Below, one piece after another: positions 19,409 through 47,250 of a stretch of 64,000 nucleotides of DNA (the first letter of the stretch is position 1; the number at the start of each line of letters is the position of its first letter). The notes under the pieces were generated by a model that was not told the DNA's origin, did no database searches, and saw only the letters and a program-made list of their open reading frames with translations. The position numbers were made by a program, and so were the translations under genes. The stretch comes from Octopus vulgaris (taxonomy: Eukaryota), in assembly GCA_951406725.2 (NCBI GenBank), contig OX597821.1, positions 5,146,001-5,210,000 of the forward strand, in the 5' to 3' direction.

Positions 19409-19506
19409 TATATATACGGAGAATTCATGAAGAAAACAAAAGACGAAGACAGGTGGTGTAGAAAACAAACAGATATATTAATATAACGCTCGGGAATTGA
19501 AAAAAT

Positions 19507-19542
19507 CTTTAACGTTTCGAGCCTACGTTCTTACACAGAAAG
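19507..19542 (-). ncRNA. Degenerate minimal hammerhead ribozyme in a short PLE-like insert (about 19415-19585)
   Basis: Minus strand cttt-ctgtgta-agaacgtaggctc-GAAACGT-T-aaag; stem I cttt/aaag, palindromic AACGTT, mutated core. Confidence 0.45.
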
Positions 19543-19641
19543 GAACACAGAAAGAAACAAGGAGAGAAACAGGGAGAGAGAAAAATATATATATAGACAT
19601 GCATACATGCACACATATATACATGCATACATATATATAGA

Positions 19642-20277
19642 CTAGCAGTATCGCCCGGCGTTGCTCGGGTTTGTAAGGGAAATAACTATATAAGCATTTT
19701 TAGAGAGTTATAGCCAAAAAATAGCAAAAAATGCATTCAAAATGGAAAAAATATGATGGTAAATTTTTTTAGAAATCGTTGACTCATCGTAGACATTTTA
19801 GAGAGTTACTTCCCTTATATAATAGCGAAAAAATGCATTAAAATGGAAAAAAAACGATGGTAAATTTTTTTTTAAATCGTAGACTCATGTAGACGCTTTC
19901 TTAGCCATTTCTGTTTTGGTGTCTTCAAGCCATGAAGTCGTTGTTCTAAAAGAACGCTGGTCTCCTTGACAACGCATTACGACGTTGATTTCCTTACACT
20001 CCCTTCCCCACAGGTGCAGGTGTGAGCGTGGACGCCAACTCCGCCGCCATCGACACACGAAAAATTATGCATTAAAATGGAATAAAAAATTATGTTAAAT
20101 TATTTTTAAAATCGTAGACTCATCGTAGATGCACGCTAATACTCAGACGGGCTCGATATGAATCACGACTATAAGCTACCCGAATTTGGTTAAACTGCAC
20201 CGCAAAATGTGGGAGTAGTTAGGAATCTAAATCGAAGGGGACAGACACTCACACAACTACAGTTTTATATATATAGA
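19642..20277 (-). mobile_element. Non-autonomous Helitron
   Basis: Minus strand has 5'-TC, 3'-CTAG and subterminal hairpin cccgagcaacgccggg; inserted between A and T; homologous to 41022-41418. Confidence 0.85.
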
Positions 20278-20329
20278 TATACATAGCGCAGTAGTGGTGA
20301 GATGTGACAGCAAAGAAAAGCATACATTC

Positions 20330-20890
20330 ACTCTCTGCATGCAATTAGACTCGGAAAGTTCGTGAGGAACCCATTGACCCAATTTGCTGACTTTTCCGAT
20401 AGCACACAGGTCTCAATGAATGGTTGAATGACCAAATCCAAGCTTCTCTGCTAGTTCCTCAACAGTTACGATGAGATTTTGTTCCACCAGGGTTTTCAGT
20501 ATGTCCTTGTCGAGTTCTACAGATCTTTCAGGATGAGGCTCGTCTTCTAGGCTGTAGTTTATGGCTCGGAATTTCTGGAACCACCATTGACACTGCCATA
20601 CGCTTATTGTCCAATCCCCATATACTGCATTAATATTTCTTGTACTTTCCGTTGCGTTGTTGTCTTTATTGAACTCATAAAGCAAAATATGCCAAATATG
20701 CTCCTTTGTTACTTCCAATATAGCTTTGAAAAAAATAGCTGTTAAAATCGAAATGCACTCTTCAAAACTTGCACTATGAATAAGGACAAGATAAAATTAC
20801 TACCTGCTTTTATAGCAAGTTAATATAAGTAGTTTATCCCATTCCCCTCTGACTTTTAGTTCAAGCTGTTGAAAAAACCGCATTATTATA
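20330..20890 (-). mobile_element. Mariner 5' fragment (transposase N-terminal HTH; ORF 20413-20718)
   Basis: EHIWHILLYEF..WFQKFRAINYSLEDEP..TVEELAEKLG. Confidence 0.85.
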
Positions 20891-44003: not shown

Positions 44004-44369
44004 ACTATATATATATATATATATATATATATATATATATATATATATATATATATATATATATATATATATATATGTATGTTTGTATGTATGTATGTAT
44101 GTATGTATGCATATATAAAAGTACAGGAGTATAGATATATATGGACGTTCGTAGGTAGAGAATTTTAAAAGCTCATATGTTGTATTAAATAAAAACCCTT
44201 GAACAGAAATGTTCAGAAACCCAATTGTGGAATAACAGACACGTACCTACCATAACCTGGTCTGTCGTCGCATACATACGACAGGGCAACTTTTTCAGCT
44301 CCCTTCTTAGACATTTTAATGTTGTGAGCGAGAAAGATATGTGTATGTTAGTTTCTAAAACGAAAGAAT

Positions 44370-44641
44370 AATAATAAATAAATAAATAAATAAATGCGCC
44401 CTTTTAAAGCCTAGCCAGGCTCATGAGCCCGGTTTCTCGGGTTCTATGGCGTATGTGTTCCCCAGCTGGACGGGACGTCGGTCCACCGCAGTGTTACTCA
44501 TTTTTGCCAGCTGAGTGGACTGGAGCAACGTGAAATGAAGTGTTTTGCTCAAGAACACAACACGTCGCCTGGCCCAGGAATCGAAACCACAATCTTACGA
44601 TCATGGTGCTGACACCCTAACCACTAAGCCAGGCGCCTCCA
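44370..44641 (-). mobile_element. tRNA-derived SINE family C (CORE/V-like central domain) with (TTTA)n tail
   Basis: Head ggaggcgcctggcttagtggttag..gtttcgattcc, followed by ttgagcaaaacacttca. Confidence 0.8.
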
Positions 44642-44724
44642 CACACGAAAGAATACTTCAACTGTATTAAAGAATATGTACCAAATTAGTACATATTCCA
44701 TATATATATATATATATATATATA

Positions 44725-44966
44725 CCGGAGTAAACACATAAATGTGAAACAAGGTGGAAAAAGAGTACTCAAATACCAGTGGTAGAGTAATATGCTTTAT
44801 TTTAAGCAGCAGAAAATTCAACAAAATCTGTTACTCTGAGTTTCTCGTTGCCGTTCATCGGAAAGTGTTTGCTAGAATCTAGTTCTAGCAAAAACTGTCT
44901 GATGAACGGCAACGAGAAACTCAGAGTAACAGATTTTGTTGAATTTTCTGCTGCTTAAAATAAAGT
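44725..44966. mobile_element. Fold-back element in (TA)n with two minimal hammerheads
   Basis: 44794-44878 is inverted relative to 44882-44966. Confidence 0.85.
44895..44932 (+). ncRNA. Minimal type I hammerhead ribozyme
   Basis: ctgt-CTGATGA-acg-gcaa-cga-GAAACTCAGAGT-A-acag; mirror copy at 44828-44865 (-) has a CCGATGA core. Confidence 0.8.
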
Positions 44967-46737
44967 ATATATATATATATATATATATATATATATATAT
45001 ATATATATATATATATATATATATATATATATATATATATATATATATATATATATATATATATATATATATATATATATATCCTTCTTTTTTCTAGTTT
45101 ATTTGAAGATAGATAAATAATAAACTCTGCCTTCTATGATTGGTCTCTTAGCCTTTGATGTGTAACTATGTAAGCGAATTTCCAAGAGAAAAGTATTTAT
45201 TTCTGTTTCGGTGTTTTCCAAAGGTCCTACGGGTTTCCATATCTTTTTCGACAGGGCAGTAACCAATATTTCACTAAAGCCAGTTACTGGATACTGTCTA
45301 AAGGAGAATTTTATGTTGAATCGTATACCCTCTATTATATCTCTATATATAAAATATATATATATAACTTACTTGGAAGAGGACGCGTGGCGTTCAATCA
45401 TATAATAACAGTTTAATAAATAAAACATATGCATACATACATACATACATACATATATGTACATACCTACATCTATATGCTTTGCGGGAAGGACTGTTTC
45501 GACTACGTCGTGTCCTGCCCTTACCTTCGAAACACGCAATAAGTCCAAACGGGCAGCTGAAGAAGGGGAATGTTCCTTGTGTTGCATGTCTTGTACTCTG
45601 TTTTTTCGTTGTTAAAAAAAAGTCCGTTGCCATGTCTTTTTTTATGTTCTCATTTCTCGTTGTGTTCTACGTTTTTATGTGGTGTCCTGTACCCATATAT
45701 GCATGTATATATACATATAGATGTAGGTATGTACATATATATATGCATGCATATGTTTTATTTATTAAATATATTATATATATATATATATATATATATA
45801 TATATATATATATATATATATTATGTATGTATGTATGTATATATGTGTCTACGTACGTATGAATGCATATATGTATGTATGTATGTTTATATATGTATAT
45901 ATATATATATATATATATATATATATAGAATATATCATATATATATATATATATATATATATATATATATGACGGCTTCCCATACAGTTTCCGTCTACGA
46001 AATTCACTCACATGGCAGTTGTTCTGGTCCGCCATAGTAGAGGGTTCGTCGTGCAGTTTGATTGAACCCCAAAGTACAGACTGCATAGCGAGGTTCTTAA
46101 CCGCAACAGCATGTCTGCGTCTTTGGGAAGCGAATTGTTATATCCCATCAATTGAGATCGGGTAATTCATGGCAATCAATTAAGGGGAAACTACCTCGAA
46201 ATCATACTTTTCAAGTGGCTGCTTCTGTATAGTTGTTTTACTGTATTGTTCATCATGTTACCCACGCATAGCTTTTGTACGGTAAGTCGGAGGTTAGTTA
46301 GGTCTTGTCTTCGTATTTATAAGAGAAAACAGTAGAATTGTTATTCCGTTGTTCCAAAATTTTGGGATTTCTCTGGATGAGGCAAACCTTGCAATATTTG
46401 TCGATTTGCTTTAATAGAGATCCTTCTGTGTAAAAATCGGTATTTGTCTTCTTCTCATATTTGTTCTCTTCACCAACTTGATTGTGTGTGCAAACTGAAA
46501 TGGTGTACATTCAAAAGAAGACAGTTTTCTGGCTTCATGATATTGGTTTAAGATATGTGTGTGCATAGAGAGAAAGATAGATAGATCAATATGTAGGCAG
46601 GTGTAGATATACATATACGTATATATACACTTAGGAATGTATATATGTATATATATGAATATATGCATATATATATGTATATATATATATATGTATATAC
46701 ATATATATATATATATGTATATATATATATATATATA

Positions 46738-47250
46738 CCAATTAAGGACTGAACACGAAAAAGTGGACAGTCAACATGCTAGATATAGACGTCAAATCGT
46801 CATTCTCCACAAAGATTTTGTTCTCAAATAAAAATAAAATTCAGCACGACCTAAAGCAATGGATGAGACAAAAGAAATATACTAAATGGAATAATCACCT
46901 ACGTACCGTACAGTTTCAGCTATTAATATCACAAGGATATCTGTAGCTTCGTCAGCGTAGTTTGTTATGAGCATAATATGTTGTACTAGATGAAAAACGG
47001 TACCGGAGTCCCGCATGCAAAAAGTACGACCTATTACGTTCGGATGTATCTTTCAAATGCCTCTACTTTTGGCGCGCTGATAATCGAAAAACCAGCCTGC
47101 AGCTAATAATTAGCAGCAGTCAATTTATCGGTTTGAGAACATATATTTCATATTTAAAAATTAAGGGTAAAAATTGATATTAGTCAATTAAAACCAGTGG
47201 TCTAGCACATTAAAAAGAATCCGAAGATTAAAATATTTATATATACCAAT
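46738..47250 (-). mobile_element. Circularly permuted monomer (about 508 nt) of the 35248 family
   Basis: Starts ccaattaaggactg and ends tatatataccaat, a junction that is internal and contiguous at about 35341. Confidence 0.8.
46899..46960 (-). ncRNA. Type I hammerhead ribozyme, apparently intact
   Basis: ctacg-CTGACGA-agcta..gatatc..gatatt..tagct-GAAACTGTACGGT-A-cgtag. Confidence 0.85.

Follow-up and report, generated by a model that had tools for sequence, protein, structure and literature searches.

What are the short hammerhead-bearing inserts scattered over a stretch of the Octopus vulgaris genome, and which enzymes placed them there? The window analysed here, the whole stretch of 64 kb, had been described in a first-pass annotation as hosting many independent, non-autonomous RNA parasites. 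We found an insert at every site named there (Table 1). The inserts are, as judged from their sequences, real mobile-element copies bearing predicted hammerhead ribozyme motifs. They fall into eight families (A to H), in support of the proposal of many mutually independent ones, and all eight were found again elsewhere in the 2.8-Gb genome.

Predicted hammerheads in the window and the genome

The window was scanned with a descriptor of type I hammerheads, comprising in order stem I, C[U/C]GANGA, stem II, GAAA, a palindromic stem III, UH and stem I. This yielded four strict matches (27039+, 30415-, 44899+ and 46955-), whereas 40 block-wise dinucleotide shuffles of the window gave a mean of 0.075 and a maximum of 1, and the anticipated excess over shuffled sequence is thus present. 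With one core mismatch permitted, four window matches scored at least 11, versus none in the shuffles. Strict matches were absent from 92 kb around tRNA genes. The local density, initially thought striking, is ordinary for the flanks of such loci, as the other flanks fetched contain 24 strict matches in 524 kb, or 2.9 per 64 kb.

For each family we collected 30 loci, the best of 72-2672 first-look candidates per query and not a random sample. The strict descriptor was matched in loci of B (21/30), C (28/30), D (28/30), E1 (7/30), G (15/30) and H (30/30), in agreement with the type I hammerheads with palindromic stem III first described, and in none of the 30 loci each of A and F. Many E1 copies harbour an extra base before stem II, which the descriptor excludes. 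The Rfam hammerhead models, proposed as a check, gave no such agreement: none was among the matches listed for the window (150 of 441), nor among the five matches at E<=10 on an array of family B. Matches of miRNA models on microsatellites dominated the Rfam scans, and (TA)n dominated general repeat finding.

Table 1. Predicted features of the eight families in the window, with class and clade names as assigned or presumed in the text
Family	Feature	Positions	Strand	Details
A	Truncated 3' end of old, presumably Neptune-like coding PLE	19417..19584	-	Minimal hammerhead 19507-19542, stem III ACGU
B	Fold-back of 360-nt non-coding tandem monomer: short arm (-) and tailed arm (+)	26372..26778		Hammerhead 26523-26562(+)
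C	Fold-back of 3' end (pLTR) of putative autonomous Hydra-clade PLE	26826..27121		Hammerheads 27033-27092(+), 26928-26988(-)
D	1.5 units of young 433-nt non-coding monomer	30154..30789	-	Hammerhead ~30350-30418, long stem II
E1	Fold-back of 505-nt non-coding monomer	35248..35758		Hammerhead 35540-35601(+), with C3 mutated here
F	Old, interrupted fold-back of presumably Neptune-like coding PLE	36368..37322		GIY-YIG remnant 36817-36939(-); decayed hammerheads 36553-36589(-), U3-A8 core, and 37230-37267(+)
G	Fold-back: tRNA-Arg-like head, internal (AAT)n, minimal hammerhead, PLE-type tail	40468..40917
G	Head, 3' half retained in this copy	40715-40759	-
G	Hammerheads	40561-40606(-); 40821-40863(+)		Second copy mutated
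H	Short fold-back, tailed arm left, short arm right	44724..44965		Hammerheads 44895-44932(+), 44828-44861(-)
E2	Slightly more than one unit of 508-nt non-coding monomer, sister of E1	46738..47250	-	Intact hammerhead ~46900-46960

Coding, non-coding and tRNA-headed families

The description of all inserts as non-autonomous applies to B, D and E, but A, C and F continue upstream into reverse transcriptase (RT)/GIY-YIG frames of Penelope-like elements (PLEs) and are the 5'-truncated ends of these protein-coding elements. The remaining families are non-coding repeats. In one family C locus (L241), the hammerhead region is preceded upstream by a stop-to-stop frame of 634 residues, for which a Pfam search returned no match, and another (L245) has a 2.57-kb unit from pLTR to pLTR. 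In the translations of L241, L243 and L245 we read RWK, DKT, a CxCX5C linker, and CxxC and CxH in the C-terminal EN, as in the description of Hydra-clade PLEs (PMC8557442), and we assign family C to that clade as a putative member by these motifs.

In family A, RT/GIY-YIG remnants are found upstream on the same strand in 6/30 loci. The decayed GIY-YIG remnants of A and F resemble an RVT_1+GIY-YIG protein of the same genome, and both families are presumably Neptune-like, a clade marked by a C-terminal GIY-YIG with a Zn-finger linker upstream of the hammerhead. U replaces A at core position 6 (A6U) of the family A hammerhead in each of the 30 loci examined, and a further core change is present in the window copy. 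Fold-backs and partial tandems of the PLE type, an arrangement first ascribed to each insert, do occur, but A is simply truncated, and its 30 loci show one 3' end and no genuine inverted arm. In family F, we do not regard a CUGAAGA...GAAA motif near 36385 as a hammerhead, as it has neither stem II nor stem I; it belongs to a short internal duplication present in relatives, and the real hammerheads of F are the decayed ones of Table 1.

In the B, D and E monomers, as delimited in natural tandems, the longest ORFs measure 50 (B), 83 (D), 47 (E1) and 56 (E2) aa, GC contents are 0.34-0.47 and each unit has one predicted type I hammerhead. The window hammerhead of B lacks the 5' strand of stem I, the motif being intact in 21/30 loci. 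Apart from tandem or inverted monomer copies, B, D and E1 loci share no common upstream sequence. At many unlinked loci, copies read through the whole monomer into the preceding unit, and the arrays all terminate at the same pair of sites, in (TA)n. One array, of family B (L246), comprises 9+3 copies. These three families thus have the characteristics of non-LTR retrozymes, i.e., non-coding tandem monomers with a predicted type I hammerhead in each unit.

Stem covariation among copies, an expectation of the first-pass annotation, was found for family E. E1 and E2 differ by compensatory changes across all four helices, with five pairs altered on both sides, and their core is unchanged while stems and palindrome vary together. 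In these stems 98.4% of cells are paired, versus 24-41% in slid controls; the covariation mostly represents one subfamily split, and 223/500 shuffles reach the same pair count.

The window hammerheads of family G are truncated or mutated, with intact motifs in 15/30 loci. Because neither ARAGORN (0/14 loci) nor Rfam called a tRNA in its head, we compared the latter with 27 distinct genomic tRNAs, and the top three were all tRNA-Arg (z 7.5-7.8, 200 shuffles each). By eye, the head harbours what we take to be A and B boxes, relative to the consensus. Head-first loci run on into the body in 23/30 cases, and hammerhead-first loci include the head in 23/30 and extend to its first 5 nt, a fixed 5' limit, in 12/30. 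Target-site duplications of 9-17 bp flank the element, with at least 9 bp in 24/32 fold-backs versus 1/32 controls. Head and body thus make up one unit, flanked by such duplications. Its 3' end is of the two-site PLE type (see below) and not LINE-like, with no A-tail or LINE-derived tail. On the sense strand, TTTT is present in 4/23 copies and AAAA in 23/23. A literature search for the octopus SINEs OR1 and OR2 gave no match.

3' ends, fold-backs and the enzymes of insertion

Six families (B, C, D, E, G and H) terminate at either of two fixed sites downstream of the hammerhead motif, the interval corresponding to the PLE 'tail'. In nt from the predicted cleavage site, these ends are at 176/222 (B), 204/254-267 (D), 179/266 (E1) and 179/262 (E2) in the retrozymes, and at ~46/113 (C), ~42/110 (H) and ~55/95 (G) in the others. 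Nearly all resolvable fold-backs (112/115, hand tally) combine one short and one tailed end. Their arms are unequal, with junctions that vary in C, D and E and recur in H. The proposed location in (TA)n stands for the 3' ends of six families, with, per 30 loci, 22 in A, 27 in C, 26 in D, 21 in E1 and 26 in H relative to 5-6% of random positions, but not for G (1/30 loci), whose supposed (ATT)n target at 40515 belongs to the element itself. The 3' ends carry no poly-A or simple-repeat tail. Of 21 tail-to-tail comparisons, that of H with C was marginal (z 2.5, 2/300 shuffles) and the others were not significant, and B, D, E, G and H had no sequence match to a driver element. Among 368 loci (1.18 Mb), there were no ORF-linked copies of B, D, E, G or H. 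The loci are rich in LINE fragments.

Two fixed ends downstream of the hammerhead are a known signature of PLE insertion, and their presence in six families indicates that PLE enzymes are the likely writers. We thus consider it probable, with good confidence, that RT/GIY-YIG proteins of PLEs wrote all eight families into the genome. On the predicted retrozymes, the two-site ends are evidence for the use of PLE enzymes at the level of insertion itself.

In the mechanism that we propose, a PLE protein, probably a dimer, would cut both strands of its target. Drivers of the Hydra and Neptune types would use (TA)n, and the driver of G would use AT-rich DNA, with its cuts staggered by 9-17 bp. Internal start site 1 would prime one cDNA and site 2 its partner, and the template RNA would span the cleavage site, either as an uncleaved multimer or as a re-ligated circle. 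Joining of the two truncated cDNAs would produce a fold-back, and run-on copying would yield tandems longer than one unit. The palindromic stem III may let two hammerheads cleave as a dimer, releasing monomers for circularisation, and G might use its head as a Pol III promoter.

The insertions did not bear out the epithet 'ribozyme-processed': their 5' ends are spread over the monomer, and by hand count ~3 of ~90 distinct direct arms start within 10 nt of the predicted cleavage site. This lack of clustering runs against an explanation by ribozymes and PLEs, together with the non-canonical core, single 3' end and lack of fold-backs of family A, the lack of a sequence-matched driver for B, D, E, G and H, and the G head that neither ARAGORN nor Rfam called. 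Cleavage has also been found dispensable for insertion (PMC11167929).

It is conceivable, albeit unlikely, that PLEs mobilised these elements while the hammerheads no longer cleave and are kept as protein-binding or dimerisation folds. The A6U core of family A and the absence of 5'-end enrichment would suit such folds, and 8/9 Xenopus retrozyme dimers did not cleave (bioRxiv 10.64898/2026.07.22.740005) and minimal PLE hammerheads are weakly active (PMC4209133). This is countered by the young families B, C, D and H, each with an intact core in 21-30 of its 30 loci, and by the E1/E2 stems and palindrome, which change compensatorily around a constant core. That every family is the 5'-truncated pLTR end of autonomous PLEs, with coding copies unsampled and tandems arising by local satellite expansion, holds for A, C and F, and retrozymes have been proposed to arise from pLTRs and expand locally (bioRxiv 10.64898/2026.07.22.740005); H is short and its source element was not seen. 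As a general account we find it improbable, because at many unlinked loci the B, D and E copies traverse a complete monomer and enter the unit before it, their arrays share the same two end sites in (TA)n, and G copies halt at a fixed head (12/30 hammerhead-first loci reaching its first 5 nt). Lastly, insertion by LINE enzymes or DNA-level fold-back/MITE transposition with the hammerheads as passengers, suggested by the plentiful LINE fragments, the SINE-like G with its target duplications and the MITE-like H with its recurrent junctions, is highly improbable given the lack of poly-A or simple-repeat 3' tails, the two fixed internal 3' ends shared with the bona fide PLE family C, arms that are unequal, unlike terminal inverted repeats, and the varying junctions of C, D and E.

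Within the preferred explanation, insertion by PLE enzymes, we lean somewhat towards a bolder reading, in which G would be a PLE-driven SINE, with a tRNA-Arg promoter for Pol III joined to a hammerhead and a Penelope tail. Along with the pairing of one end of each type in fold-backs, this would prove directly, from the genome, that PLE enzymes carry animal retrozymes, and would point to asymmetric two-strand priming in PLE integration. If G is Pol III-driven, it would represent a SINE partnered by a PLE instead of a LINE.

Comparison with known systems

The general phenomenon, i.e., hammerheads in PLE ends, tails, inverted copies, TA targeting and retrozymes, is already published. The hammerheads of PLE pLTRs (Cervera & de la Pena 2014, PMC4209133) are of the same type I with palindromic stem III, and likewise form many variable families per genome, in which most copies are truncated and stand alone or inverted. 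Family F shares the U3-A8 core reported for the Schistosoma Cercyon elements. Unlike that set, several octopus families have long (6-8 nt) palindromes and a long stem II, and A has its family-wide A6U. Family C corresponds to the Hydra-clade PLEs (Craig et al. 2021, PMC8557442) in its size (<3 kb), its canonical hammerhead, its insertion into (TA)n, the presence of tandem as well as inverted copies and its tail, although the latter is ~67 nt long versus 30-40 bp.

Similar to metazoan non-LTR retrozymes (Cervera & de la Pena 2020, PMC7229834; Li, Clavereau & Pollet 2026, bioRxiv 10.64898/2026.07.22.740005), B, D and E are non-coding, low in GC and dispersed as monomers to multimers with one type I hammerhead per unit. 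At 433-508 nt, the D and E monomers are longer than those of the former study (170-400 nt) but fall within the 51-972 bp of the latter. In the literature compared here, the enzyme that moves animal retrozymes was argued from co-occurrence and pLTR homology. Relative to published retrozymes, the two-start-site tail and (TA)n flanks are here mapped on insertions. The octopus non-coding retrozymes share the two-start-site footprint with a coding Hydra PLE of the same genome, so that the link between retrozymes and PLEs can be tested with defined RNAs whose start positions are predicted.

The Poseidon PLE of Anolis (Frangieh et al. 2024, PMC11167929) likewise shows two fixed 3' ends beyond the hammerhead and an RNA template that spans the cleavage site; in vitro, its two internal RT start sites bound the tail and both target strands are extended. 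No difference in start site between strands was seen in that in vitro study, whereas octopus fold-backs nearly always pair one of each, a rule that constrains the second-strand step of PLE integration.

Finally, the passages of a review consulted here (PMC6765202) describe the SINE-like Schistosoma SM-alpha/Sj-alpha repeats, for which these passages name no driver, and in which, as in G, a Pol III-type promoter precedes a hammerhead. Compared with the repeats as described there, G is mostly monomeric or in fold-backs and retains its head; its hammerhead is minimal, it includes an internal (AAT)n and a PLE tail, and it is flanked by 9-17-bp duplications.

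Hammerhead motifs and their genomic density

The hammerhead-bearing inserts are a real mixture of Penelope-like element (PLE) ends and probably PLE-dependent non-coding elements. Its components belong to classes already described; what is new is the tail footprint carried by retrozymes (non-coding hammerhead monomers), together with the rule for fold-backs and family G. Families are named by window site (A, 19415; B, 26370; C, 26827; D, 30153; E1, 35248; F, 36367; G, 40515; H, 44725; E2, 46738), E1 and E2 being sister subfamilies, and L-numbers denote family loci fetched from elsewhere in the genome.

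The window, part of an assembly of 2.8 Gb (227 contigs), has a high AT content and many (TA)n tracts. It contains four strict type I matches, against a mean of 0.075 and a maximum of 1 in 40 block-wise dinucleotide shuffles, and four matches scoring at least 11 with one core mismatch tolerated, against none in shuffles. This excess bears out the type I hammerheads of the first-pass annotation; no Rfam hammerhead model was among the matches listed. The local density, which had been deemed striking, is ordinary for such flanks: other fetched ones hold 24 strict matches over 524 kb, or 2.9 for every 64 kb (0-1 in shuffles), and 92 kb around tRNA genes hold none. Inspection by eye of other flanks revealed about 15 more type I motif types with 6-9-nt palindromic stems III (Table), which suggests that the genome hosts dozens of families. 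Rather than being exceptional, the window is like other TA-rich neighbourhoods.

Each family was searched genome-wide, yielding 72-2672 first-look candidates per query, which are not copy numbers, and the 30 best-scoring loci per query, some overlapping, were fetched. The strict motif was found in 21 (B), 28 (C), 28 (D), 7 (E1), 15 (G), 30 (H) and none (A, F) of these. Core position 6 is U in all 30 family A loci shown; in so abundant a family, either the variant is tolerated or it proves that spread needs no cleavage. Family F does carry a hammerhead (15/30 loci, 8 with a U3-A8 core), about 200 nt away from where it had apparently been placed. The predicted stem covariation was found between E1 and E2, with five pairs altered on both sides and spread over all four helices; across 16 of the 26 distinct sequences, 98.4% of cells paired (slid controls, 24-41%), the signal being mostly one subfamily split. 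The stem III palindromes have self-duplex energies of -7 to -18 kcal/mol (B, C/H, D, E, F) or -1.7 kcal/mol (A/G) and hardly any hairpin energy, which is compatible with a dimer fold.

Coding Penelope ends and non-coding monomers

The description of these inserts as non-autonomous holds for B, D and E and fails for A, C and F, which are ordinary truncated ends of coding PLEs. Approximately 1.5 kb of upstream sequence is common to family C loci L053, L055 and L057, longer stretches contain a 634-residue frame, and L245 harbours a 2.57-kb unit bounded by two hammerhead regions. Family A has same-strand RT/GIY-YIG remnants in 6 of the 30 loci retrieved with upstream sequence, and family F continues into a GIY-YIG frame in L230. 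A PLE coding region beside a family C copy, in L242, is a candidate driver of the TA-targeted inserts.

B, D and E are retrozymes. The 360-nt monomer of family B occurs in arrays, the largest with 9 plus 3 inverted units, and the periods are 433 nt in D, 505 nt in E1 and 508 nt in E2. Their longest ORFs are 50 (B), 83 (D), 47 (E1) and 56 (E2) aa, and 12 of the 42 listed D matches are identical across 181 nt. Family H comprises short copies only, 28/30 of them fold-backs (inverted inserts of two arms) with recurrent junctions. In L113, the H match is preceded, ~505-530 nt upstream, by a sister H fold-back whose altered stem II still pairs fully. No match was obtained for a driver of B, D, E, G or H.

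Features in the window and in fetched loci
Location	Strand	Feature	Remarks
Window 182-421		Fold-back insert adjoining (TA)n, unequal arms, PLE-like layout	No match to hammerhead descriptor
Window 15713-17056, 18019-18750, 62044-62708		Fragments taken to be decayed LINE-type RT and restriction-like endonuclease	
Window 36817-36939		Family F GIY-YIG remnant	
Window 50095-51503		294-nt exact tandem pair with inverted and permuted copies amid (TA)n	No clear hammerhead
Window 56985-57419	-	Remnant GIY-YIG endonuclease from a further Hydra-like PLE	38% identity over 71 aa to family C protein; no clear hammerhead downstream
Window 57763-58450		Diverged inverted pair adjoining (TA)n, CUGAUGA half-cores without matching GAAA	May be an old PLE insert
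L242:3702-7001	+	Long PLE coding region beside family C copy	RVT_1 and GIY-YIG Pfam matches
Flanks of L005, L027, L047, L062, L073, L081, L086, L110, L167, L201, L217, L256, L257		Further type I motif types	

Insertion signature and RNA template

With distances taken from the cleavage site, the 3' ends occupy two positions, short and tailed: 176/222 (B), 204/254-267 (D), 179/266 (E1), 179/262 (E2), and about 46/113 (C), 42/110 (H) and 55/95 (G). Family F likewise has a short and a tailed end, and family A a single one. We tallied by hand 125 distinct insertions with an inverted arm and excluded 10 because one end was not visible or an arm fell short of both sites. Among the remainder, 112/115 fold-backs pair one short with one tailed end (B 9/9, D 7/7, E1 12/12, E2 8/9, C 17/18, H 28/28, G 31/32); independently chosen ends would yield at most about half. 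Of the three exceptions, L038 and L320, with inverted flanks, resemble later palindromic duplications, and L171 is complex. In vitro, a Poseidon PLE starts synthesis at two internal sites, which bound the tail, and extends both strands of the target without needing hammerhead cleavage (PMC11167929); PLE tails, inverted truncated copies and a (TA)n bias are on record (PMC8557442).

The proposed TA enrichment was recovered, with 3' ends in (TA)n in 22 (A), 27 (C), 26 (D), 21 (E1), 26 (H) and 11 (B) of 30 loci, compared with 5-11% of random positions; the B count is too low because its arrays extend beyond the tested stretch. The 5' ends are scattered across the monomer, and in a single case, the window E1 copy, one arm starts at the cleavage site. 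Copies carrying the core upstream of that site must derive from an RNA template that spanned it, uncleaved or circular, both of which fit the data. From the literature, we infer that cleavage, circles and Pol III use would apply to these elements.

Family G and relation to known systems

Family G departs from the microsatellite setting ascribed to it: its 3' end lies in (TA)n in only 1/30 loci, and its (AAT)n is internal. Duplications of 9-17 bp accompany 24/32 of its fold-backs, versus 1/32 controls. Of 27 distinct genomic tRNAs, the three that best match the head, which lies upstream of the (AAT)n, are all tRNA-Arg genes (z 7.5-7.8); the head was called as a tRNA neither by ARAGORN (0/14 loci) nor by Rfam. 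Head and body are linked in 23/30 loci, whichever served as query, and the sense strand lacks TTTT in 19/23 copies, as would be required for Pol III read-through. A short perfect hairpin marks the 5' limit (e.g., L161:1338-1352), where many fold-back junctions fall; it could prime snap-back synthesis. The octopus has tRNA-Arg-derived SINEs, OR1 and OR2, so that family G may be an old, already catalogued family; a literature search for these found no paper.

Titles and abstract openings, mostly from outside subscription papers, yielded neither a PLE-driven tRNA SINE nor a one-short-one-tailed fold-back rule, and 'hammerhead' and 'ribozyme' do not occur in the main text of PMC13282606. The family C unit has RWK, DKT, CxCX5C, CxxC and CxH motifs, the stated marks of the Hydra clade (PMC8557442, section 11), and the U3-A8 core in family F is a variant known from Schistosoma PLEs (PMC4209133). 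Family G, with its promoter-like head and hammerhead, resembles the SINE-like repeats of schistosomes, where a hammerhead likewise lies behind a promoter (PMC6765202).
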